A stretch of DNA of 64,000 nucleotides, from assembly GCA_963719225.1 (NCBI GenBank), contig CAVRAY010000001.1:192001-256000 (forward strand). The letters are read 5' to 3'. This stretch comes from Thermoanaerobaculia bacterium (GTDB taxonomy: Bacteria > Acidobacteriota > Thermoanaerobaculia > UBA5066). Made by a program: the position numbers and the translations under genes. Below are positions 16,245-61,879 of the stretch, in pieces (positions within the stretch are counted from its first letter, which is position 1; each line of letters begins with the position of its first letter). The notes beneath the pieces are model-generated. The model made no database searches, was not told where the DNA came from, and saw only the letters and a program-made list of their open reading frames with translations.

Positions 16245-16622
16245 CTATTTCAGAAGCGAGGCCAGCTCTTTCCGGACCTCGTCCATCTTGACCGTGTGGT
16301 CCGGCTGCTTGAAGAGCACGTCCCCCTTCGCGGAGCGAACCACGAGCCCGTGGTTCTCGAATCCGAGCTCCTTGATCTGCATCTTCGAGTCGGGGGTGGT
16401 CGCATCGACGTTCCTCGCGACGACCTTTCCCGGGAATTCCTTCTCGAGCCCGCTCACGGCAGGCTTCACTTTCGCGCAAACGGGTCAACCCGGCAGGAAG
16501 AAGTAGGTCACCTCCACGGGCTTCGCCACGGCCGCGCCGGCCTTCGTCTCGTCGGCGTGCGCGGCGGGCGCGAGAAAAGCCGCCACGAGAGCGACCAGGA
16601 CGATTCTGAAAGAGGCCTTCAT
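16245..16622 (-). CDS. Probable selenoprotein: secreted thioredoxin-fold protein with UxxC motif (in-frame TGA at 16487-16485)
   Basis: Two track ORFs are in the same frame. Read-through gives signal peptide ...VEVTYFFLPG-U-PVC-AKVKPAV..LEKEF.GKV, a thioredoxin beta1-CxxC-alpha pattern. A hairpin follows the TGA. Confidence 0.8.
16447..16465 (-). promoter_or_regulatory. Candidate bacterial SECIS hairpin
   Basis: AGCCUGC-CGUGA-GCGGGCU: 7-bp stem (one G-U), loop starts 26 nt after UGA, G at second loop position. Confidence 0.5.
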
Positions 16623-51480: not shown

Positions 51481-52503
51481 TTACGTGACGAGACTTTTCA
51501 ACAAAGCGACGGCGCCCTCGAGGTCGGAGGCGCCGTCCAGCCGCATCCCGCCCGCGCCGGCCCAGGCGCGCGCGACGGCGCCGGATCCACCGTCGACGCT
51601 TTCCTGGGGAATCTCGCCTTTCGTGAACTCCTCGACGAACTCCGGACCCGCGAGCTGGACGAGACGCGCTGGTCCGGGAACGCGCGGTCCGAGGAGCAGC
51701 GTCGAAACGCGTCGGGCCGCGCGCGCTTCGGGACGCGAGGCCGCGAAGAGATCGATGCGGCGCTTCACCTCGCCGCCCGAGAACCCGGCCTCGGTGCCCG
51801 ACTGGAGGCCCAGAAGAGCCGCGCTGTCCTCGCGCAGCGTCAGCTCGCGGACCGAGGAGGCGAGCTCGTCCGGATCGGCGCGCGAGACGAGCACGCTCTC
51901 GTCTCCGAGCACGCCGAGCCCGGCGGCGTGCGCGGCGGCCACGAGCGTGGACTTTCCGGCGTCCGAGGCCCCGCGCACCACGACGGCGCCCTTCGGACCC
52001 GTGACGGCGCCCGCGTGCAGCGCGCGCCAGCCGCGGCGCGCGAGCAGGATCGCGGCGGGGGCCTCGAGGAGCGTGCGGGCGAGGAAAGAACGAAGAGAAG
52101 AAGAGGAAGATTTCTTAGAAAGGGGAAGATAAGAAAGAAGAGAAGCCGCGATGCGCGCGTCGACGCGCGCTCGCTCGAGATTGATCGTGACTTCCAGGGC
52201 GCCGGGGACCGCGCAGCGAAATTCCGACGCCTCGTGCACCCACTGCAGTCTTTCTTCGAGTGAAAGAATGGGGTCGGCGTCGCGGCGCGGCGAGCTGGGA
52301 GCCGCCACACCGCCCTTTTTCGCGCCTTCCAAGAAATCTTCGTCTTCGTCCCGCGTAACCTCGATCGCGATCGCCGCGCGCGCATGGCCCGTGGGCGCCG
52401 GCGCCCAGAGCTTCTCCGCCAGCTCGAAGAGGAGCGGCTCTTTCGACGTGAGCGCCACGACATCTCCGGGCGGCCCAAAGAGCCGTGTCGTTCCGTCCGC
52501 CAT
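51481..52503 (-). CDS. HprK-related P-loop kinase
   Basis: LHAGAV, GASDAGKSTL (Walker A), LGDES; contains low-complexity inserts. Confidence 0.75.
   Translation of the reverse strand: MADGTTRLFGPPGDVVALTSKEPLLFELAEKLWAPAPTGHARAAIAIEVTRDEDEDFLEGAKKGGVAAPSSPRRDADPILSLEERLQWVHEASEFRCAVPGALEVTINLERARVDARIAASLLSYLPLSKKSSSSSLRSFLARTLLEAPAAILLARRGWRALHAGAVTGPKGAVVVRGASDAGKSTLVAAAHAAGLGVLGDESVLVSRADPDELASSVRELTLREDSAALLGLQSGTEAGFSGGEVKRRIDLFAASRPEARAARRVSTLLLGPRVPGPARLVQLAGPEFVEEFTKGEIPQESVDGGSGAVARAWAGAGGMRLDGASDLEGAVALLKSLVT
52106..52126 (+). repeat. 21-nt motif GAAGATTTCTTAGAAAGGGGA (exact copy at 57053-57073)
   Basis: Direct sequence comparison; inverted related copy at 52325-52341. Confidence 0.8.
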
Positions 52504-52730
52504 GTGCCGCAGCTTGCCACGGAGAGCCCGACGACTCCGGAAGTCCGGCTCAGGGCGGCCATGGGCCGTTCTGCCGGGAAGGCGTAACCTTTCACGATTC
52601 CGTGCGTCATACCGGGATGCTCTCGGCCCCCGGCTGCGTGCGGGCCTTTTCGAGCGCCGTCCTGGCCCTGGAGTTGCTCGGGAGAGAAGGAACCGTGTGT
52701 CCTCGGTCAATTCGGCGTGGAGGTTCTCCG

Positions 52731-55700
52731 ATGAGTCAGCTTCGAGATCGTCGTTCCGGCGCTCGCGGGTGGAACCGCGGCCTCTCCCTGGTGCCGCTTC
52801 TCGTGCTCGCTCTCCTGGCCGGCGGTGCACGTGCCGGGGAGATCCGCGGGCGGCTTCTCGTCAACGATCGCGCGGACAGGCCCGCGGGCGGCCTCACGGT
52901 CAGCGCCGTTCCCTGGGAGACGCCGGGCGAAGAAGCGCGCCGCGCCATGAAAGGAGGCGACCCCCCGAAGCCGATCGCGTCGACCGTCACCGGAGCCGAC
53001 GGCTCCTTCGTCCTGGCCGTTCCCAGCGATCCCGCGGCTGAAAAGACGTTTCGCGTGAGAGTCGAGGGCCCGGGCGTCGTGCCCGTTCTCTTCGAGGACG
53101 TCTACGACGCGTCCGAGACCGGAGATCTCGGCGAGCACACGCTGCCGCACGGCGAGAAGCTCACGGGCATCGCGGTGGACACGTCCGGGAACCCGCTCGC
53201 GGGAGCGGAAGTCTCCCTCGAGGCGGGGGTTGCGGGCGGCGACGACCTCGCCTTCCGGGTCGTGACGCGGAAGGTCGTGACGAAAGAGGACGGGAGGTTC
53301 CAGTTCGAAGAAGCGAGCGCGCTGGGCAACCAGATCACGATCGAGAAGGCGGGCCTCGCGCCCGCGCTCCAGACCGGCCTCAAATCAGGCGCGATTCCGA
53401 GGCCCATCGCGGTCGTCGCGGGCGACCCGGTCACCGGCGTCGTCCTCGGCGCCGGCCGGAAACCCGTGGGAGGCGCCCTCGTGCGGCTGGAGAGCGTCAA
53501 GGCGATGACGCGCTGGGTCGAGACGGATCCCGAGGGACGCTTCACGATCCCGCACGCGCCCGACGGCCGCGGCGCGATCGTCGTGGACGCCGGCGACGGC
53601 GGCTGGGGACGCAAGCCCGACGTCAAGCTCCCTCTCGGCGAGGGCCGATCGCTCGTAATCACCCTCGCTCTGCCGGCCTCGCTCGACGGCAAGGTCGTCG
53701 ACGACAAGTCGGGGCGCATCGTGCCGCGCGCGAAGGTCCTGGCGAAGGCGAACGGCTTCGCGCGCCTCGTGCGCACGGGCCCGGACGGGACGTACCACCT
53801 GAAGGGCATCCCGCCGCAGACCTATCGCCTCACCGTCGACGAGCCACGATACGTGCCGTGGGCGAGGCCGGATCTCGCGCTCGCGCCCGGCGAGGCGAAG
53901 CGCCTCGACATCGCCGTGACGCTCGGAGCCTCGCTCGCCGGGAGGGTCGTGGACGAGAACGGCGCCCCCGTGGCGAGCGCGCGCGGAACCCTCATGCGCG
54001 GAGGCGAGAACGCCCTCCAGGGCATCCGCCGGATGATGCGCGCCGGAGGAGAGGTCACCGCCTTCCGCACGCGCTCCGACGGGACGTTCCGGGCCGCGCG
54101 CCTCGCCCCCGGCGACAACCAGCGCCTCTTCGTGAGCCATGCGGACTTCGAGCGCGCGACGCTCGCCGGACTGTCCCTGCCCTCCGGCGGCACGAAGGGC
54201 GACGTGGCCGTCGTGATGCGCCGGGGCGCCACGATCTCGGGCATCGTGAAGGACACGAGCGACCAGCCGGTCGCGGACGTCGAGGTGCAGGTCGATCCAT
54301 CCGTGAGCTTTCGCGCTGGAGCGGGCGGCATGGTCGCGAACTTCGCGCGCCTCGGCGGCCCGAGCACGCGCCCCAGGACGAAGACAACCGCCGACGGCAG
54401 GTTCCGGATCAAGGGCATGGCCGTGGGCGAGTACGCGCTCCAGATCAGCAAGCCGGGGTTCGCGAGCGAGCGCGTCGACCCCGTGAAGGTGACGGAGAAA
54501 GGCGCCGATCCCGTCGCGGTGACCCTCGGGCCGGGAGCGAGCATTTCGGGGATCGTGCGCCGGAAGAGCGGGGAAGGGGCCGAGGGCTTCTTCGTGCGCG
54601 TCGGCGCCGGCGGCCGCGGGGCGGCCGGTGGAGGCGGTCCGCTCGCCGGAACCGGCACGCCGCTCCCGACCGGCGCGGACGGAACGTTCGTCCTCGACGG
54701 CCTGAAACCGGGTCACGTTTACGACCTCTCCGTCTTCGGCGGGGCAGGCATCGGTCCGCAGAAGCGCGGCGTCGTGGCGCCGGCCTCGAACGTCGACATC
54801 CTGGTTTCCGGCACCGGGCGGATTTCAGGCACCGCGCTCGACGCGCGCTCAGGCCAGCCCCTCAAGAGCTTCTCGGTTTCCTTCGAGCCCGACCGCGGCG
54901 GCGGCACGGTCATCCGTCTCGTTGCCCGCGGCGCGGGTGCCCGTACCGGCATCGGCCAGAAGCGCAATTTCAACACCGACGATGGCGCGTTCACGCTCGA
55001 GGACGTGCCCGCTGGAACCTGGACGGTCGTCGTCGAGGCGAAGGGCTATCTCGAGGCGCGCGTCGCGAACCTCGTGGTCGAGGAGAGTGGCTCCAAGGAC
55101 GGCGTCGAGATTCGCGCGACCCCCGGAGTCGTCCTCAAGGGACGGGTCTCGGACGCGCGCACCGGCCGGCCCGTCGCGAACGCGAGCATCACGCACGAGC
55201 CGGCCGGGGGCGGCGGGCCGGGCGGCTTCGGAGGCCGTATGACCGTGCTCGCGGGGCTCGACGGCGGCGACGACATCACGAGCGACGCGGAAGGCAACTT
55301 CGAGATCGAGGGAATCTCCGTCGGGCGCCTCAAGGTCACCGCGAAGAGCCCGGACTACACGGACGGCAGCGAGGTGGCGGACGTCAAGGAGACCGGCGGC
55401 ACCGTCGAGATCAAGCTCACGACGGGCGGATCGGCGGGCGGCGTCGTCGTGGCCGGCAGCCAGCCGCTCGCGAACGCCCAGGTCTCCCTCGCGGTCGCGG
55501 GCGACGCGGGCTTCGGCCGCATCCTCGGGGGCGGGCAGACCACCACGACGGACGCGACGGGCCGCTTCCGGTTCGACCACCTCGGGGCCGGCCGCTACAG
55601 CGTCTCGGCGGGGACGAGCGGAAAGTCGAGCAACCTCTCGGAGTTCGTCCTGCAGGCGGGCGACTCGAAGAACGACCTCGTGCTGTCGCTCACCTCGGGC

Positions 55701-57014
55701 TCGACGATCCAGGGCACGGTGTCGGGACTTCCGGACGGATGGAGAACCGGCGCGACGGTGATGGCCAGCGGCGTCGAGTCGTTTTTCGAGACGACGAAGG
55801 TCGCCGCCGACGGCACCTTCCAGATCACGGGCGTGCCCGCGGGACCGGTCACGCTCCGCGCGCAGGCGGGCGACGGCCTCGGCACGTCGAGGAGCGCCAC
55901 GAAGCAGGTGACGGCGAGCGACGACGTGCCCGTTCTCCAGGCGGAGATCGTGTTCGACGTCGGCTTCACGCTGACGGGGCGCGTCATGCGAGCGGGGCAG
56001 CCCGCCGCGAACGCGATGGTCGTCGCGAACCTCCAGGGCGGCGGCGGCCGTCAGGCGACGACGCGCGCCGACGAGGGCGGCACCTACACGCTGCAGGGCC
56101 TGCAGGAGGGCTCGTACGTCGTCACGGCGATGGCGGATCCGCTCTCGGGCGGCGGCTCGCAGGTGAGGCAGACGATCTCGCTCACGAACGACCAGAACCT
56201 CGACCTGACGTTCCCGACGGCGAAGGTGGCGGGCACCGTGACGGACGCCGACACGAAGCAGCCGCTCGCCGACGCCACGGTCTCGATCGCCTCGACCTCG
56301 GCCGCGGGCAGCGTCCCGATGCAGAGGATGGCCACGACGGACAGCAACGGGCGCTTTCAGTTCATGGACGTCGTGCCGCAGGCCTACACGCTCAACGCGC
56401 AGAAGACCGACTACGAGTTCGACAAGCGCAGCCTCACGGCCGCCGACGACGGCAGCACCGAGAATCTCGCGATCGAGCTCGTGCACGGGCAGGGCATCGG
56501 CATCCAGGCGCGGGATGCGCTCTACGGCGTCCCGATGCGCAGCGTCTCGGTGCGCGTCCTCGACGGGAACAGGTCGGCCGTCTTCATGGGTACGATCTCT
56601 CTCGACACGAGCGGCGTCGGCGAGGTCCCGTCGCTCAAGCCGGGGACCTATTCGCTCTTCGTGAACGCGAGCGGTTACGCGACGGTCGTCCTCGCGAGCG
56701 TCTCGGCGCCGTCGCAGCAGCCCGTGCCGGTTTCCCTGACGCCCGGCGGCTCCGCCGACATCTCGGTCGGACCGAAGTCGTTCGTGAACGGCATCCTGCG
56801 CGGCACGCTCAAGACGGCGGCGGGCATCCCGTACCCCTACACGCTGTTCGCGGCGGACGGACGAATCGCGATCACCGCCGACGCGAGCGGCCACACGGGC
56901 TTTCGGCGCCTCACGAACCTGGCTCCGGGCAGCTACGTCCTCGCGCTCGACAACGGCGGCGGCACGACCTTCAACGTCGCCGAAGGCAGCATCACGCCGG
57001 TGCCGCTGCCATAA
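52731..57014 (+). CDS. Large exported protein of tandem carboxypeptidase-regulatory-like/prealbumin-fold beta-sandwich repeats
   Basis: Signal peptide; more than 10 repeats of G.V.D..G.P...A.V ... TD.DG.F...G...G.Y; SD GGAGG. Confidence 0.85.
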   Translation: MSQLRDRRSGARGWNRGLSLVPLLVLALLAGGARAGEIRGRLLVNDRADRPAGGLTVSAVPWETPGEEARRAMKGGDPPKPIASTVTGADGSFVLAVPSDPAAEKTFRVRVEGPGVVPVLFEDVYDASETGDLGEHTLPHGEKLTGIAVDTSGNPLAGAEVSLEAGVAGGDDLAFRVVTRKVVTKEDGRFQFEEASALGNQITIEKAGLAPALQTGLKSGAIPRPIAVVAGDPVTGVVLGAGRKPVGGALVRLESVKAMTRWVETDPEGRFTIPHAPDGRGAIVVDAGDGGWGRKPDVKLPLGEGRSLVITLALPASLDGKVVDDKSGRIVPRAKVLAKANGFARLVRTGPDGTYHLKGIPPQTYRLTVDEPRYVPWARPDLALAPGEAKRLDIAVTLGASLAGRVVDENGAPVASARGTLMRGGENALQGIRRMMRAGGEVTAFRTRSDGTFRAARLAPGDNQRLFVSHADFERATLAGLSLPSGGTKGDVAVVMRRGATISGIVKDTSDQPVADVEVQVDPSVSFRAGAGGMVANFARLGGPSTRPRTKTTADGRFRIKGMAVGEYALQISKPGFASERVDPVKVTEKGADPVAVTLGPGASISGIVRRKSGEGAEGFFVRVGAGGRGAAGGGGPLAGTGTPLPTGADGTFVLDGLKPGHVYDLSVFGGAGIGPQKRGVVAPASNVDILVSGTGRISGTALDARSGQPLKSFSVSFEPDRGGGTVIRLVARGAGARTGIGQKRNFNTDDGAFTLEDVPAGTWTVVVEAKGYLEARVANLVVEESGSKDGVEIRATPGVVLKGRVSDARTGRPVANASITHEPAGGGGPGGFGGRMTVLAGLDGGDDITSDAEGNFEIEGISVGRLKVTAKSPDYTDGSEVADVKETGGTVEIKLTTGGSAGGVVVAGSQPLANAQVSLAVAGDAGFGRILGGGQTTTTDATGRFRFDHLGAGRYSVSAGTSGKSSNLSEFVLQAGDSKNDLVLSLTSGSTIQGTVSGLPDGWRTGATVMASGVESFFETTKVAADGTFQITGVPAGPVTLRAQAGDGLGTSRSATKQVTASDDVPVLQAEIVFDVGFTLTGRVMRAGQPAANAMVVANLQGGGGRQATTRADEGGTYTLQGLQEGSYVVTAMADPLSGGGSQVRQTISLTNDQNLDLTFPTAKVAGTVTDADTKQPLADATVSIASTSAAGSVPMQRMATTDSNGRFQFMDVVPQAYTLNAQKTDYEFDKRSLTAADDGSTENLAIELVHGQGIGIQARDALYGVPMRSVSVRVLDGNRSAVFMGTISLDTSGVGEVPSLKPGTYSLFVNASGYATVVLASVSAPSQQPVPVSLTPGGSADISVGPKSFVNGILRGTLKTAAGIPYPYTLFAADGRIAITADASGHTGFRRLTNLAPGSYVLALDNGGGTTFNVAEGSITPVPLP

Positions 57015-57152: not shown

Positions 57153-59150
57153 ATGATGAAGCACGGGAGCAAGACTCTTTTCCTTTCTCTTTTTCTTCTT
57201 GGAATTGCCGCGTTGGCGGCGCGCGCCGAGACGCCCGAGCAGGCGCGAGGGAAGAAGCAGGCCGCCGCGCTGTGGCGCGCGGCCGACGGGGACGCGGCGG
57301 CCTTCGAGGCGTTCGCGAAGGCGAACACCGCGCCCGATGCCGCGACGCGCGACGCCATGTTCATGCGTCTTTCGGCCGCGCTCGTCTCGCTAGAGGGGCA
57401 CATGGACGAGGCGACCCGCGATCTGAGAATGCACGTGGACCTCGACCGGGGACCGATACAGCCGTTCGACGAGGCGCTCGCGGCGTATTACCCCGGCGCT
57501 CACCTCACCGACGACCTTTTCGAGAACAAGCTCGCCTTCACGACTCTCCTCAACTTCCCCGTGTACACGCTCGACGAGAAGCTCCGCCTCGGCCCGAAGT
57601 GGACGCGCCGCCAGTGGGCGGAGGCGCGTCTCGCCGACCGGTTCGCGCGCCGTGTTCCGGCCAGCGTGAACCTCGCGATCGCGAAGGCTTATTCGGACTC
57701 GCAGCAGTACATCGCCTCGTACAACATCTGGATGCACCATCTCGTGGACGACAAGGGCGCCCGCCTCTTCCCCGCGAAGATGCGGCTTCTCTCGCACTGG
57801 AACCTGCGCGACGAGCTCAAGTCCGATTACGCCGACCGCGAGCAGGGGCCCGCGAAGCAGCGCGCGATCCGCAAGGTCATGGAGCGCATCGTCGATCAGA
57901 CGATCCCCTTGGCCGTCCTCGACAACCCAGGGGTGGACTGGAATCCGTTCACCAACGAGGTCAGGAAAGCGGCCGTCAAGGACTCGGACCTGCCGGAGAA
58001 GCCGGCCCCTTCCGGTCCCGAGCCCGACTCGCGTTACGCGGTCCTCCTCGCCGATTTTCGCGCCGTGAGGCAGGCCGATCCCTACTCGCCGACGGCGCCC
58101 ACGTTCATCGCGCGGAAGTTCGAGGAAGGCCGCCAGATCCCCGAAGCGCGCGTTCGGAAGATGCTCGAGGACGTCCTTTCCTCGCCGCTCGTGCCGAAAG
58201 TCGCGGCGCTCATCGAGAAGCGCCTCGGGCGGAAGCTCTCGCCCGTCGACGTCTGGTATTCCGGCTTCCGGCCGCAGCCGGAAAAATCCGGTGCTGAGCT
58301 CGACGCCGTCGTCCGGGCGAAATACCCGACGCCCGAGGCGTACGCAAAGGACATCCCGAACCTTCTCGCCAAGCTCGGCTTCTCGAAGGAGAAGGCCGAA
58401 TTCGTCGCGTCTCGCATGGAGGTGCATCCGGCGCGCGGTTCCGGCCACGCCTCAGGCGCAGAGCTGAAGGGCTACAAGTCGTACCTGAGGACGCGCGTCG
58501 AGAAGGACGGGATGAACTACAAGGGCTACAACATCGCCGTCCACGAGATGGGTCACAACGTGGAGCAGACGTTCTCTCTCTACGAGATCGACGAGCCCCT
58601 GCTGAAAGGCGTGCCGAACACGGCTTTCACCGAAGCGCTCGCATTCGTCTTCCAGGGGCACGACCTCGAGCTCCTCGGTCTCGCGAAGCCGTCGGAGAAG
58701 GCTCTCGCGGAAAAGACGCTCGACGCGTTCTGGGGCACGTACGAGATCGCCGGCGTCGGCCTCGTCGACATGGGCGTCTGGCATTTCATGTACGAGCACC
58801 CCGACGCGACGCCCGCCCAGCTGAAGGCGGCGACGCTCGCGATCGCGCGCGACGTCTGGAACCGTTTCTTCGCCCCAGTTCTCGGCGAGAAGGACGTCAC
58901 GCTCCTCGCGATCTACTCGCACATGATCGACGCGTTCCTGTATCTGCCCGACTACTCGATCGGTCACATGATCGCGTTCCAGGTGGAGCGGCAGATGGAG
59001 AAGGCGGGAGCGATCGGCCCCGAGTTCGAGCGCATGGCGAAGCTGGGAAACATCGCGCCGGATCTCTGGATGACCCAGGCCGCGGGCGCGCCCGTCGGCC
59101 CCGAGGCGCTTCTCGCCGAGACGGAAAAAGCCCTTTCGACGATCCGTTGA
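57153..59150 (+). CDS. Secreted gluzincin-like metallopeptidase (M2/M3-like)
   Basis: Signal peptide; HEMGH followed about 24 aa later by NTAFTEALA; later H..Y..Y motif. Confidence 0.65.
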   Translation: MMKHGSKTLFLSLFLLGIAALAARAETPEQARGKKQAAALWRAADGDAAAFEAFAKANTAPDAATRDAMFMRLSAALVSLEGHMDEATRDLRMHVDLDRGPIQPFDEALAAYYPGAHLTDDLFENKLAFTTLLNFPVYTLDEKLRLGPKWTRRQWAEARLADRFARRVPASVNLAIAKAYSDSQQYIASYNIWMHHLVDDKGARLFPAKMRLLSHWNLRDELKSDYADREQGPAKQRAIRKVMERIVDQTIPLAVLDNPGVDWNPFTNEVRKAAVKDSDLPEKPAPSGPEPDSRYAVLLADFRAVRQADPYSPTAPTFIARKFEEGRQIPEARVRKMLEDVLSSPLVPKVAALIEKRLGRKLSPVDVWYSGFRPQPEKSGAELDAVVRAKYPTPEAYAKDIPNLLAKLGFSKEKAEFVASRMEVHPARGSGHASGAELKGYKSYLRTRVEKDGMNYKGYNIAVHEMGHNVEQTFSLYEIDEPLLKGVPNTAFTEALAFVFQGHDLELLGLAKPSEKALAEKTLDAFWGTYEIAGVGLVDMGVWHFMYEHPDATPAQLKAATLAIARDVWNRFFAPVLGEKDVTLLAIYSHMIDAFLYLPDYSIGHMIAFQVERQMEKAGAIGPEFERMAKLGNIAPDLWMTQAAGAPVGPEALLAETEKALSTIR

Positions 59151-59186
59151 CGCAACTTCAGAGCCTCGGCGCCGTATAGTTCCCCC

Positions 59187-60521
59187 ATGAGAATGACTTC
59201 CTCGACGGCGATCATCACGGCGCTCCTCGCGGCTTCTGCTTCCTCGTTCGCGTCCACGACGAAAGAAGCTGCAAAAGAAGTCCTGCCCTTCATCGCGGAC
59301 GACTACCCGAAGGCCCTCGCGCTCGCGCGCGCCGAGAAGAAGCCGATCTTCCTGGAGACCTGGGCGCCCTGGTGACACTCCTGCCGTGCCATGAGGGCCT
59401 TCGTCTTCACGGACAAGGCTCTCGGGCGGCAGGCCGGACGGTTCGTCTGGCTCTCCATCAACACCGAAAAGCGCGAGAACGCGGCCGTCCTCGCGAAATA
59501 CCCGATCCAGGCCTCGCCCACGCTTTTCGTGCTCGATCCCGTGGCCGAGAAGATCGTCCTCAAGTACGTCGGTGCCGCGACGGTGCCGCAGCTCCAGCGC
59601 ATCCTCGACGATGGCGCACGCGCCGCGGGCCACGGCCGAAAGCCCGACGAGTGGCTCGCGAAGGCGGACGCTTTCTATTCGGCCGGCCAGAACAAGGAAG
59701 CGGCCGAGGCCTATCGCGCGGCCCTGAAGGGCATGGCGCCTTCCTCGCCGTCGTACCCGCGCACCGCCGAGTCGCTCCTCTTCGTGCTTTCCGCGAGCCG
59801 CCAGCACGAGGCGTGCGTCGAGGTCGCGCGCGAAGCGTTCCCGCACCTGAGAACGTCGCCGTCCGCCGCAAACGTCGCGGCTTCGGGCCTCGACTGCGCG
59901 CTCACGCTCGACAAGAAGCTGCCCGCGAGGTCCGCGCTCGTCTCCGAATTCACGGCCGACGCGGAACAGGTCCTGAGCGGGCGGCGCGCAGGCCTCGCGG
60001 TCGATGACGTCTCGTCGCTGTATCTGACGCTCGCCGGCGCGCGCGGGGACGCGGGCGACGAGAGCGGAAAGAGGAAGACGCTCGAGGAATTGGCGTCGTA
60101 TCTGGAAGGCGAGGCCGCGAAGGCGAAGACCGCCGAAGGCCGCGCCGCGTTCGACGCGCACCGCATCACGGCATACCTCGAGCTGGGCCAGCCCCAGCGG
60201 GGAATCGCGATGCTCGAGGCCTCCGAGCGCGACTTTCCCGACGACTACAACCCGCCCGCCCGCCTCGCCCTCGCCTATCGGGCCATGAAGAAGTACGACG
60301 AGGCCCTCGCGGCTTCCGACCGCGCGCTCCAGCGCTCCTATGGTCCGCGGAAGCTCGTCATTCTGCAGGCGCGCGCCCGCATCTACGCGGACAAGGGAGA
60401 TCCCCAGGCGGCGAGAAGGACCCTCGAAGAGGCCCTCGCGTGGGCCGAGGCGCTCCCGAAGGAACAGGTGTCCGAGCGGCAGGTCGCCGCGCTCAAGAAA
60501 CAGCTCGAAGCGCCCAAGTAG
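59187..60521 (+). CDS. Probable selenoprotein: exported thioredoxin-fold (WUHSC) plus TPR protein (in-frame TGA 59373-59375)
   Basis: ORFs 59187-59375 and 59391-60521 share a frame. Read-through gives AL..ARAEKKPIFLETWAPW-U-HSC-RAM, then PTLFVLD and TPR helices. Confidence 0.85.
59393..59423 (+). promoter_or_regulatory. Candidate SECIS-like hairpin
   Basis: GAGGGCCUU/AAGGCUCUC 9-bp stem, bulged C, GUC/GAC, loop UUCACG, starting 17 nt after UGA; loop lacks the usual 5' G. Confidence 0.4.
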
Positions 60522-60547: not shown

Positions 60548-61879
60548 ATGCGGTGGATCCCTCGCGCGATCGTTCCGGCGTTGGTGCTCTTCGCGCCTGT
60601 GGCATTCGCGCAGGATTCGCTGCTCGGGCAGAACGCGCTCGCGACCGAGTCCGGCCGCTTCCGCCTCAAGGCGGAAGTGAAAATGAACGCGCGGACGTCG
60701 ACCGCGATCGAGTTCCCGGTCGCGAACACGGGGACGCCGTTTCCTGTCGTCCTCGAGACCGTCTCCCCGCACACGTCCGCGGAGATCTCGAACATCGCTC
60801 TCACGGCCGAGGGCGACCTCACGCCCGACATCCTCGCCAGGATCGTCATCCACTTCCTCGACCTCTACAACCGCAATCCCACGTCCAGCTCCGACCGCAT
60901 CTTTCTGCGCGAGGCCTTCGTGCGTTTCGGGAAGAAGTGGGACGCGTTGAAGGAGATGCCCGGCACCAGCGTCTATCTCGAGCTCGGCAAGGAGCCGCGT
61001 TTCGCCAAGCAGATCACCCGGCGTCTCGAGAGCTACGGCCTGTGGGGCACGGCCGTGAACCGCTTCGAGGAGACGGGGGCCGAAGCGGGCGGCTCGTTCG
61101 GGCCCCACCTCTACTGGCGCGCGAGCGCCACCGGCGGCACGCCTCTCTACTTCCGCGACACGAACGCGCTGGCGGGAGACAACGGAACGCCCGAGCGCAC
61201 CGTCGGCTCCACGGTTCCGGTGGTCTTCGGCTCGGGAATCCCGATCCTCTACGACACGATGGCGACGGACGTGAGCTTTTCGGGGCGCTTTCAGCTCGGC
61301 GGCGGCGTGGGGCTGCGCTTCAACTGGGGCGAGAGCCGGCGGGACGGAGTGGACCTTCTCGGCTGGTACTTCCGGCGCGACCTCGCCGAGTACGTCCCGC
61401 TGCGGGGCACCTTCTACTCGGGTGATCTCGAGGTCCTGGAGGGTTTCAACAACCCCCTGCCCTTTCAGGGAACGGAGAAGTACGAGTACGGCGTCAACCT
61501 CGAGGCGCGCTTCGGGCCCGTGCACCTCTTCGGGCAGGGCGTCAAGCAGTCCATCGCCGGCCTCGAGCGCGAAGGTTACGAGGTCGAAGCCTCCGTGCGA
61601 ATCGCGCTCCCGGGCCTCTTCGCTTCCGGCGACCAGGCCGTCGTCAACTGGATCGAGCCTGCCGTGCGCGTCTCGTACATCGACAACCTCTTCGACCTGC
61701 CGGCCGGCTTCGTGGCGCCGTCCTTCGGATGGGACTGGCGCAAGTACGATTACGGCTTCCGCCTGGGCATCTTGCGCGGCCTCGATCTGACCGTGGAATA
61801 TTCCCGCCACGAGTCCACGACGCGCAGAGGGGTCCTCCACCCGGACGAAGGCCTCCTGACGCTCCGCGCCGCTTTCTGA
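60548..61879 (+). CDS. Outer-membrane beta-barrel (porin-like) protein
   Basis: Signal peptide; LREAFV, alternating beta-strands, C-terminal Phe; SD GGAGG. Confidence 0.7.
   Translation: MRWIPRAIVPALVLFAPVAFAQDSLLGQNALATESGRFRLKAEVKMNARTSTAIEFPVANTGTPFPVVLETVSPHTSAEISNIALTAEGDLTPDILARIVIHFLDLYNRNPTSSSDRIFLREAFVRFGKKWDALKEMPGTSVYLELGKEPRFAKQITRRLESYGLWGTAVNRFEETGAEAGGSFGPHLYWRASATGGTPLYFRDTNALAGDNGTPERTVGSTVPVVFGSGIPILYDTMATDVSFSGRFQLGGGVGLRFNWGESRRDGVDLLGWYFRRDLAEYVPLRGTFYSGDLEVLEGFNNPLPFQGTEKYEYGVNLEARFGPVHLFGQGVKQSIAGLEREGYEVEASVRIALPGLFASGDQAVVNWIEPAVRVSYIDNLFDLPAGFVAPSFGWDWRKYDYGFRLGILRGLDLTVEYSRHESTTRRGVLHPDEGLLTLRAAF

Follow-up and report, generated by a model that had tools for sequence, protein, structure and literature searches.

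Is a TGA codon that stands in the place of the first active-site cysteine of a thioredoxin gene read as selenocysteine (Sec), and which RNA structure would direct its insertion? The question is raised by a gene in a 64,000-nucleotide stretch of a Thermoanaerobaculia genome (hereafter the window), where an original prediction, made from the letters of the DNA, had proposed an exported thioredoxin fused to TPR repeats (Trx-TPR) with Sec in its active site. From the sequence comparisons presented below, the UGA is very likely read as Sec. The explanation as a whole, in which the gene encodes a predicted exported Trx-TPR redox protein and the signal for SelB is a hairpin at +66 brought close by an intervening hairpin, we regard as likely.

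The reading frame and its in-frame UGA

As originally described, the TGA stands at the first Cys of a WCxxC motif: the codons TGG TGA CAC TCC TGC occupy 59370-59384 of the window in a WAPW-x-HSC context, with the TGA at 59373-59375. If TGA is translated as U, a single frame of 444 residues spans 59187-60521; its lone TGA is codon 63, and 381 codons lie 3' of it, close to the 380 or so first estimated. The standard code leaves as an open reading frame only a 376-aa tail that starts at Met69. The features of the gene are as follows (window coordinates):

59175..59180 (+): -10-like hexamer TATAGT, 6 nt before the ATG, without a Shine-Dalgarno (SD) sequence
59187..60521 (+): whole coding sequence, 444 aa, signal peptide, thioredoxin and TPR, with one in-frame TGA and ending in TAG; full-length homologues exist
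59187..59252 (+): predicted Sec-pathway signal peptide, about residues 1-22 (by inspection; hydrophobic 9-mer in homologues; low-confidence N-terminus of the model)
59277..59624 (+): thioredoxin-fold domain, about residues 31-146 (Pfam, AlphaFold2 strand/helix order, PDB profile matches)
59373..59375 (+): in-frame UGA, codon 63, predicted selenocysteine at the first position of U-H-S-C (TGA/Cys pairing in homologues)
59382..59384 (+): resolving Cys66 (Cys in 94/96 aligned rows covering the site)
59517..59519 (+): Pro111, presumed cis-proline position of the thioredoxin fold (Pro in 132/133 aligned proteins)
59643..60509 (+): TPR-like helical solenoid, about residues 153-441 (Pfam TPR, model, consensus TPRs as best Foldseek matches)

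The predicted fusion of thioredoxin to TPR repeats was confirmed with Pfam, where three thioredoxin models (PF13899, E 2.9e-11; PF00085; PF13098) and several TPR models scored above cut-off. Profile matches of the thioredoxin domain in the PDB comprise 2kuc (a putative disulfide isomerase, E 5.9e-21), 2lst and DsbD-gamma, and the AlphaFold2 model (133-row alignment, pLDDT 94.6) shows a helical solenoid after the thioredoxin domain. The Pfam matches, the UxxC at the first helix and the cis-proline position place the protein among the thioredoxin-fold UxxC proteins, and oxidoreductase activity is predicted from fold and motif. In NCBIfam, no thioredoxin or selenoprotein model scored above its curated cut-off for the Trx-TPR query or for the Cys homologues P0084, P0122 and P0272, and TPR models (NF052415 and others) matched below cut-off only. 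Within the solenoid, Cys210 and Cys237 are Cys in 117/133 and 116/133 rows, respectively, and are likely to form a structural disulfide. Export, also part of the original prediction, appears likely, with a hydrophobic 9-mer leader before the thioredoxin fold in 112/120 homologues. A TANNNT box was found 5-8 nt before an in-frame start in 83/118 homologues (background: 83 of 41655 codon positions), and the Trx-TPR transcript is likely leaderless.

Matches covering the codon-63 site were identified in 39 of the 41 genomes searched (source genome included), with TGA in 36 of them and TGC or TGT in the other three. A search of the class gave matches in 89/201 genomes, where 79 of 90 places had TGA and 11 did not, and a search of the phylum gave matches in 18/301 genomes. 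The pattern used on metagenomes permitted TGA, TGC and TGT; among the matches listed, 71 of 80 loci had TGA and 9 had Cys, one of the 9 being a plain thioredoxin. Homologue records are named Thermoanaerobaculia or Acidobacteriota. Three unpublished genomes enter these counts (G025 as one TGA row, G472 and G475 in the class tally), and the conclusions are independent of them. Database proteins covering the codon-63 site have Cys there in 94 of 96 aligned cases, and across homologues the TGA pairs with Cys, the pairing that the original prediction had looked to for support. We therefore reject a chance nonsense mutation, held unlikely from the outset, and an assembly error: TGA is shared by most relatives in both searches rather than being unique to this assembly, and a contig from an independent run (run X2, record 11) that spans 59281-59455 has zero differences. 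The contigs of the four runs compared are flagged as probable DNA and carry no information on transcription.

Could the UGA nevertheless be a true stop, either in a conserved split gene or ahead of an N-terminally shortened TPR protein made from Met69, without any selenium? Gene callers side with this reading, and 102 of 120 homologues among the matches listed start at Met69 in databases, mostly under the name TPR protein; annotation with the standard code cuts the gene at the UGA and keeps only the Met69 tail. Against this, the stop at codon 63 is always TGA and never TAA or TAG, and at the sites read it alternates only with Cys codons. The half of the gene upstream of the UGA is coding, with differences by codon position of 714/417/949 and an in-frame stop in 1 of 124. 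Met69 is preceded by no SD-like 4-mer and by a -10 box in 0/127 cases, whereas the upstream ATG has its -10 box in the 83/118 homologues counted above, and a break at Met69 would, in the model, split the thioredoxin fold at the catalytic helix. A true stop is thus very improbable, and decoding of the UGA as Sec is the reading we adopt.

Forms with Cys are scattered across the family. A quick tree was computed for 115 proteins (12 short rows omitted) from the residues that lie beyond the hairpins described below; on it, the 10 Cys forms need 9 changes, of which at least 7 are forced by well-supported branches. Some Cys forms are longer through fusion: P0226 carries a DsbA-like domain, P0202 an additional TPR block at the N-terminus and P0274 a membrane domain. 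One locus (L231, G358:C30:1831-4489) has two tandem Trx-TPR copies, each with TGA and an intact second hairpin.

Two hairpins downstream of the UGA

In a consensus bacterial SECIS, a G is among the first two loop bases, the loop measures 3-9 nt and lies 16-37 nt downstream of the UGA, the stem has 4-16 bp and the energy is at most -7.5 (PMC13188914). In the available part of a report on the SelB structure, the loop G is about 20 nt from the UGA (PMC4605307). Two hairpins follow the UGA in the Trx-TPR gene:

59381..59432 (+), +6 to +57: hairpin 1, predicted spacer; core 59393-59423, loop UCAC without G, loop at +32
59433..59451 (+), +58 to +76: hairpin 2, predicted SelB-binding SECIS; GUU loop 59441-59443, loop at +66

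By implication, the original prediction took as SECIS the strong hairpin that starts 17 nt after the UGA. The strength of this structure, the core of hairpin 1, was reproduced (-18.8 kcal/mol, z -4.5, 0/200 shuffles as good). Its role as SECIS is disfavoured: the loop, UCAC, has no G, and neither has the loop of the predicted fold in 98/113 genes. The sequence of hairpin 1 varies, and the invariant G-U is located in hairpin 2, which was absent from the original prediction. In the Trx-TPR gene we found no rule-abiding SECIS at +16 to +37, where the best stem with a GG or GU loop has -0.2 kcal/mol. Hairpin 2, with a stem of 9 bp, a GUU loop and -13.4 kcal/mol, agrees with the consensus in loop size, stem, loop G and energy and departs from it in spacing, its loop being at +66 instead of the permitted 16-37 nt. 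A comparable stem at +64 to +67 was present after 24/1544 ordinary TGA stops.

Conservation of hairpin 2 was compared between TGA and Cys genes. From 138 loci, 7 identical, 3 short and 1 unrelated were removed, leaving 115 TGA and 12 Cys genes. Hairpin 2 was intact (7/7 pairs and GU) in 113/115 TGA genes versus 2/12 Cys genes, and in the two TGA exceptions it was shifted by indels, with 7/7 and 6/7 pairs. For a held-out test, the rule was fixed first and then applied to unused genes, namely those of all 8 new class genomes without the stop, of 12 TGA genomes taken by choice (13 sites, 1 already seen) and of 40 further metagenome loci, of which 3 had been seen before and 3 were short. In this set, hairpin 2 was intact in 43/43 TGA genes and 3/11 Cys genes. 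Since the sequences are related, Fisher p-values overstate these differences.

Synonymous sites required by the stem were found to be fixed. Relative to a background given by the codon use of the same genes, Ala is GCC in 112/113 (background 0.37), Gly is GGR in 112/112 (0.36), Arg is CGG in 78/78 (0.25) and Val is GTC in 107/107 (0.59). Covariation is scarce because hairpin 2 is strongly conserved: 4 of the 7 pairs are invariant, and 5 double changes occur in one pair. At the protein level, the hairpin-2 heptapeptide A-G/R-R/Q-F-V/A-W-L is present in 44/46 Met-truncated proteins versus 4/90 full-length CxxC proteins, counted on 50% cluster representatives with 14/150 unclassified and with the TGA of the Met-truncated proteins presumed; among close Cys proteins, 10/18 keep the motif. 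Hairpin 2 is retained in 5/23 Cys genes over both sets. Two of these are on the tree, where they are sister to Sec genes, a placement that would fit recent reversion; the three from the held-out set are unplaced. An Rfam search of 59100-59700 gave no family and one chance match only (E 3). We regard hairpin 2 as the likely SelB site. A natural spacing variant was also observed: in the TGA homologue L093 (G281), one codon is deleted within hairpin 1 and hairpin 2 lies at +63.

What hairpin 1 contributes was addressed with synonymous shuffles, against which its mean z is -2.57 in 113 TGA genes and -0.43 in 12 Cys genes; in the same test, control regions gave z of -0.21 and -0.02. In the structure as named, 88% of cells pair, as opposed to 30-44% when it is slid, and 50 cells have changes on both sides, a number reached by 0/500 shuffles; the structure was derived from the same sequences, which biases these figures in its favour. 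The pairs of hairpin 1 hold in just 82-85% of cells, and RNAalifold returned no consensus for it. In TGA genes, selection acts on both hairpins. When the first 11 nt are kept unpaired, as they would be under the ribosome, and a stem counts as a single step, the predicted path to G+66 has a median of 26 (range 22-58) in TGA genes versus 48.5 in Cys genes. Hairpin 1 is probably a spacer.

An alternative would keep Sec at the UGA and assign SelB binding to hairpin 1, or to a refold of it with the loop at +22, leaving hairpin 2 to act, for example, in ribosome pausing or mRNA stabilisation. In its favour, the spacing of hairpin 1 is ordinary (loop at +32) and selection on it is confined to TGA genes; 70/113 TGA genes also permit a weak 5-bp stem whose loop, at +22, begins with G; and reviews note that some bacterial SECIS elements depart from the model. 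However, the mean pairing probability of the +22 stem is 0.009, most hairpin 1 loops lack G and its sequence is variable, with the invariant pair of loop bases lying in hairpin 2, and the other Sec genes of the genome use GU or GG loops (see below). We consider this alternative unlikely and retain hairpin 2 as the predicted SelB site.

Selenocysteine machinery and decoding of the UGA

The Sec machinery on which any such reading depends is present: the genome carries tRNA-Sec, selA, selB and selD, the last with its own in-frame TGA, as well as FdhA with TGA. The locus thus combines a UGA aligned with Cys and coding conservation on both sides with selA, selB, selC and selD in the genome. Among 41 related genomes, selA was matched in 40, 38 of them above cut-off, and selB was above cut-off in 21/21 further genomes. 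The latter include Cys-form genomes, and the Cys forms therefore do not mark loss of the machinery; all genomes probed for selB have selB, and no loss-of-machinery contrast is available. Reading of the UGA as Cys or Trp by near-cognate or special tRNAs, which would give an ordinary or inactive thioredoxin, would be compatible with the Cys that works at codon 63 in at least 23 homologues. Yet the only UCA-anticodon tRNA called scores as tRNA-Sec, TGA terminates ordinary genes of this genome (1544 long coding frames) and a SECIS-like hairpin tracks TGA; such readthrough is most improbable, and Sec remains the preferred reading.

The original prediction suggested a selenoprotein-rich organism. 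Scanning 86018 TGA junctions with a codon model, followed by filtering and reading by eye, indeed yielded eight plausible Sec genes, a list that is possibly incomplete. FdhA and SelD are two of them, and the Trx-TPR gene and a second gene in the window with the motif LPG-U-PVC are two more. The others we take, from their motifs, to be a BCP-type peroxiredoxin, an AhpC/TSA-type peroxiredoxin, a GrdB/PrdB-like UxxC protein and a rhodanese-like CxU protein. Candidates besides the two in the window are located as follows (source genome G000):

C1:736134(-), 3642345(-), 116472(+), 2923112(-), 446129(-); C2:437698(-): FdhA, SelD, two peroxiredoxin-like, rhodanese-like, GrdB/PrdB-like

A perfect stem with a GG or GU loop is found at +17 to +27 in 6/7 of the other Sec genes (LPG-U-PVC gene included), with -6.7 to -13.4 kcal/mol, and three of these other genes have GUC loops, close to the GUU of hairpin 2. 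The rhodanese Sec gene has a bulged stem only and fails the perfect-stem test, which is therefore not exhaustive. Given these stems, SECIS recognition in the genome looks ordinary, and the relaxed or non-canonical recognition that had been proposed from differing loops is not borne out: the oddity of the Trx-TPR gene is in the distance, not in the loop.

Several further observations were made on this genome. FdhA and SelD have the loop core CAGUCUG in common. The LPG-U-PVC gene, the second UxxC gene of the original prediction, is real (16251-16622 of the window, minus strand, TGA at 16487); it is thioredoxin-like and exported-looking, with a weak Pfam thioredoxin match and an ordinary SECIS-like stem (loop CGUGA at +27). 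Its protein has no NCBIfam match at E 0.001, and no significant profile match relates it to the Trx-TPR protein. At G000 C1:1533894 (+), an in-frame TGA in a long repeat frame (beta-propeller-like) has neither a Cys motif nor a SECIS-like stem and is possibly a nonsense mutation. Contig C2 has two tmRNA genes with slightly different tags (C2:222382-222743 and C2:609793-610153) and a duplicated tRNA-Pro(TGG), and contamination of the assembly is given as 6.2%.

We propose that the mRNA, likely leaderless, would be translated from the ATG at 59187. With the UGA in the A site, hairpin 1 would stay folded from about +12 to +51, and the predicted distance to the hairpin 2 loop G would fall from 66 nt to a median of about 26 steps. 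SelB-GTP-Sec-tRNA would then bind hairpin 2 and insert Sec; the alternative at the UGA would be termination by RF2 after 62 residues. A two-part SECIS, in which a spacer conserved in structure only folds away about 40 coding nt and a standard GU loop follows at +66, operating in an uncatalogued and widespread family of exported Trx-TPR selenoproteins, is on balance a probable description of this gene. In the parts of the sources available, hairpin 2 is like the bSECISearch model and fdhF-type SECIS of E. coli in its loop of 3-5 nt, its stem of 7-9 bp and the G then U at the start of the loop (PMC13188914, Fig. 2 legend; PMC4605307). It differs from the consensus element in the 66 nt that separate its loop from the UGA and in the second selected hairpin that fills this gap.

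Our literature search retrieved no Trx-TPR selenoprotein and no distant bacterial SECIS; classic work on spacing in E. coli was not covered, and engineered precedents may exist. A 2005 paper reportedly described a 3'-UTR SECIS in E. coli. Table 1 of a 2026 review, with 119 families, has no Trx-TPR entry, and 'TPR' and 'tetratricopeptide' occur 0 times in its available text (PMC13188914). The word 'tetratricopeptide' is also absent from the available text of deep-Sep (PMC12013277), BSepDB (PMC13326102) and PMC9312934. BSepDB, in its accessible portion, includes Thermoanaerobaculia genomes (PMC13326102), and Trx-TPR genes may be held there under a generic thioredoxin name. In BSepDB, just 87.4% of entries have a canonical SECIS, and the remainder is called uncharacterised (PMC13326102). 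If true, a two-part SECIS may account for some of the bacterial selenoprotein genes without a canonical one, and SECIS predictors would need a spacer-aware rule. It would also free the residues just after the active-site Sec from constraint on RNA sequence and allow recombinant Sec placement with the sequence-specific loop about 20 codons from the active site. The hairpin pair is a concrete, conserved and mutable candidate for one class of non-canonical SECIS, and the Sec and Cys forms of the gene provide a natural series of controls. Taken by itself, the protein adds another, if common, member to the thioredoxin-type selenoproteins; what surprises is the RNA signal.

Predicted function and gene neighbourhood

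We favour, with moderate confidence, a function as an exported (periplasmic) disulfide reductase or isomerase with client-binding TPR. Placing Sec at the attacking position strengthens the nucleophile, a property suited to reducing, isomerising or repairing envelope proteins. Once exported, U63 and C66 would cycle between selenolate/thiol and selenenyl-sulfide, and disulfides of envelope proteins would be reduced or isomerised with the clients held in the TPR groove. Recharging of U63/C66 would probably be by DsbD, whose membrane domain is present in the genome.

The closest selenoproteins in kind are Sec-thioredoxin (PF00085) and 'thiol:disulfide interchange protein' (PF13098) (PMC13188914, Table 1), which likewise have a thioredoxin fold, a UxxC with attacking Sec and Cys homologues; the Trx-TPR protein adds a predicted signal peptide and a TPR solenoid of about 290 residues in which a Cys pair is conserved. 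The best profile matches of the thioredoxin domain are the extracytoplasmic redoxins of the DsbD-gamma and Thioredoxin_7 (PF13899) type (2kuc, 2fwe). Unlike DsbD, the Trx-TPR protein is stand-alone and soluble, with TPRs and no membrane transporter, and it scores 35 of 330 bits, far under the family cut-off. Similarly, TsoB (NF045694, 30.5 of 805 bits) and Trx7/PDZ (NF041199, 18.7 of 300 bits) from NCBIfam have a thioredoxin-like stretch in common with it and differ in architecture and motif.

Instead of a general Dsb-type enzyme, the protein could be mainly a holdase chaperedoxin similar to CnoX, or an unfolder of disulfide-bonded peptides for a neighbouring M3-like peptidase. In the available part of the source, CnoX has an N-terminal thioredoxin and a C-terminal TPR domain and acts with the cytoplasmic GroEL and DnaK (PMC8129009). 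The domain order of CnoX/YbbN is the same as that of the Trx-TPR protein, and 3qou and 3qdn are among the Foldseek matches. These YbbN matches are weak (TM 0.19-0.20; for 3qou, TM 0.19 and rmsd 24), and the Trx-TPR protein differs in its predicted export, away from the cytoplasmic partners, in its longer solenoid and in its intact U/CxxC motif, which is SxxC in CnoX of E. coli. The peptidase half of this alternative concerns the gene upstream:

57153..59150 (+): HExxH metallopeptidase-like gene, 665 aa, no Cys, likely signal peptide

Its protein matched no Pfam or NCBIfam family, and its nearest Atlas clusters are M3/oligoendopeptidase F-like. In favour of a link, an M3-like peptidase and the Trx-TPR protein are fused in frame, in about 1085 aa, at L064:997-4257 (G012, with TGA) and L074:973-4248 (G016, with Cys), and further fusions are the proteins P0272 and P0273. 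The fusions lose the second signal peptide, and the closest relatives of the G012 and G016 fusions differ and are unfused. The G012 fusion keeps the UGA, at which termination would yield only the peptidase and insertion of Sec the whole fusion protein. Although such fusions hint at joint work of peptidase and Trx-TPR protein, they may be only deletions between adjacent exported genes. Further, apart from the fusions, the peptidase is upstream in only 17/137 loci, and all these cases belong to one clade; having no Cys, it is not itself a disulfide substrate. A chaperedoxin or peptidase partner is therefore possible and rather doubtful as the main function, and we keep to the predicted reductase or isomerase.

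A conserved operon was considered and rejected, as neighbours differ by lineage and these 17 loci form the largest neighbour cluster; the gene context is therefore uninformative on function. Downstream, the gene at 60548-61879 (+) of the window encodes about 443 aa with a likely signal peptide and a C-terminal Phe and is outer-membrane-barrel-like by inspection; its protein has no Pfam or NCBIfam match, and the gene is linked downstream of the Trx-TPR gene in the same clade as the upstream peptidase. Further upstream, 52485-57014 (+) encodes a protein of 1509 aa that contains about a dozen carboxypeptidase-regulatory-like repeats.
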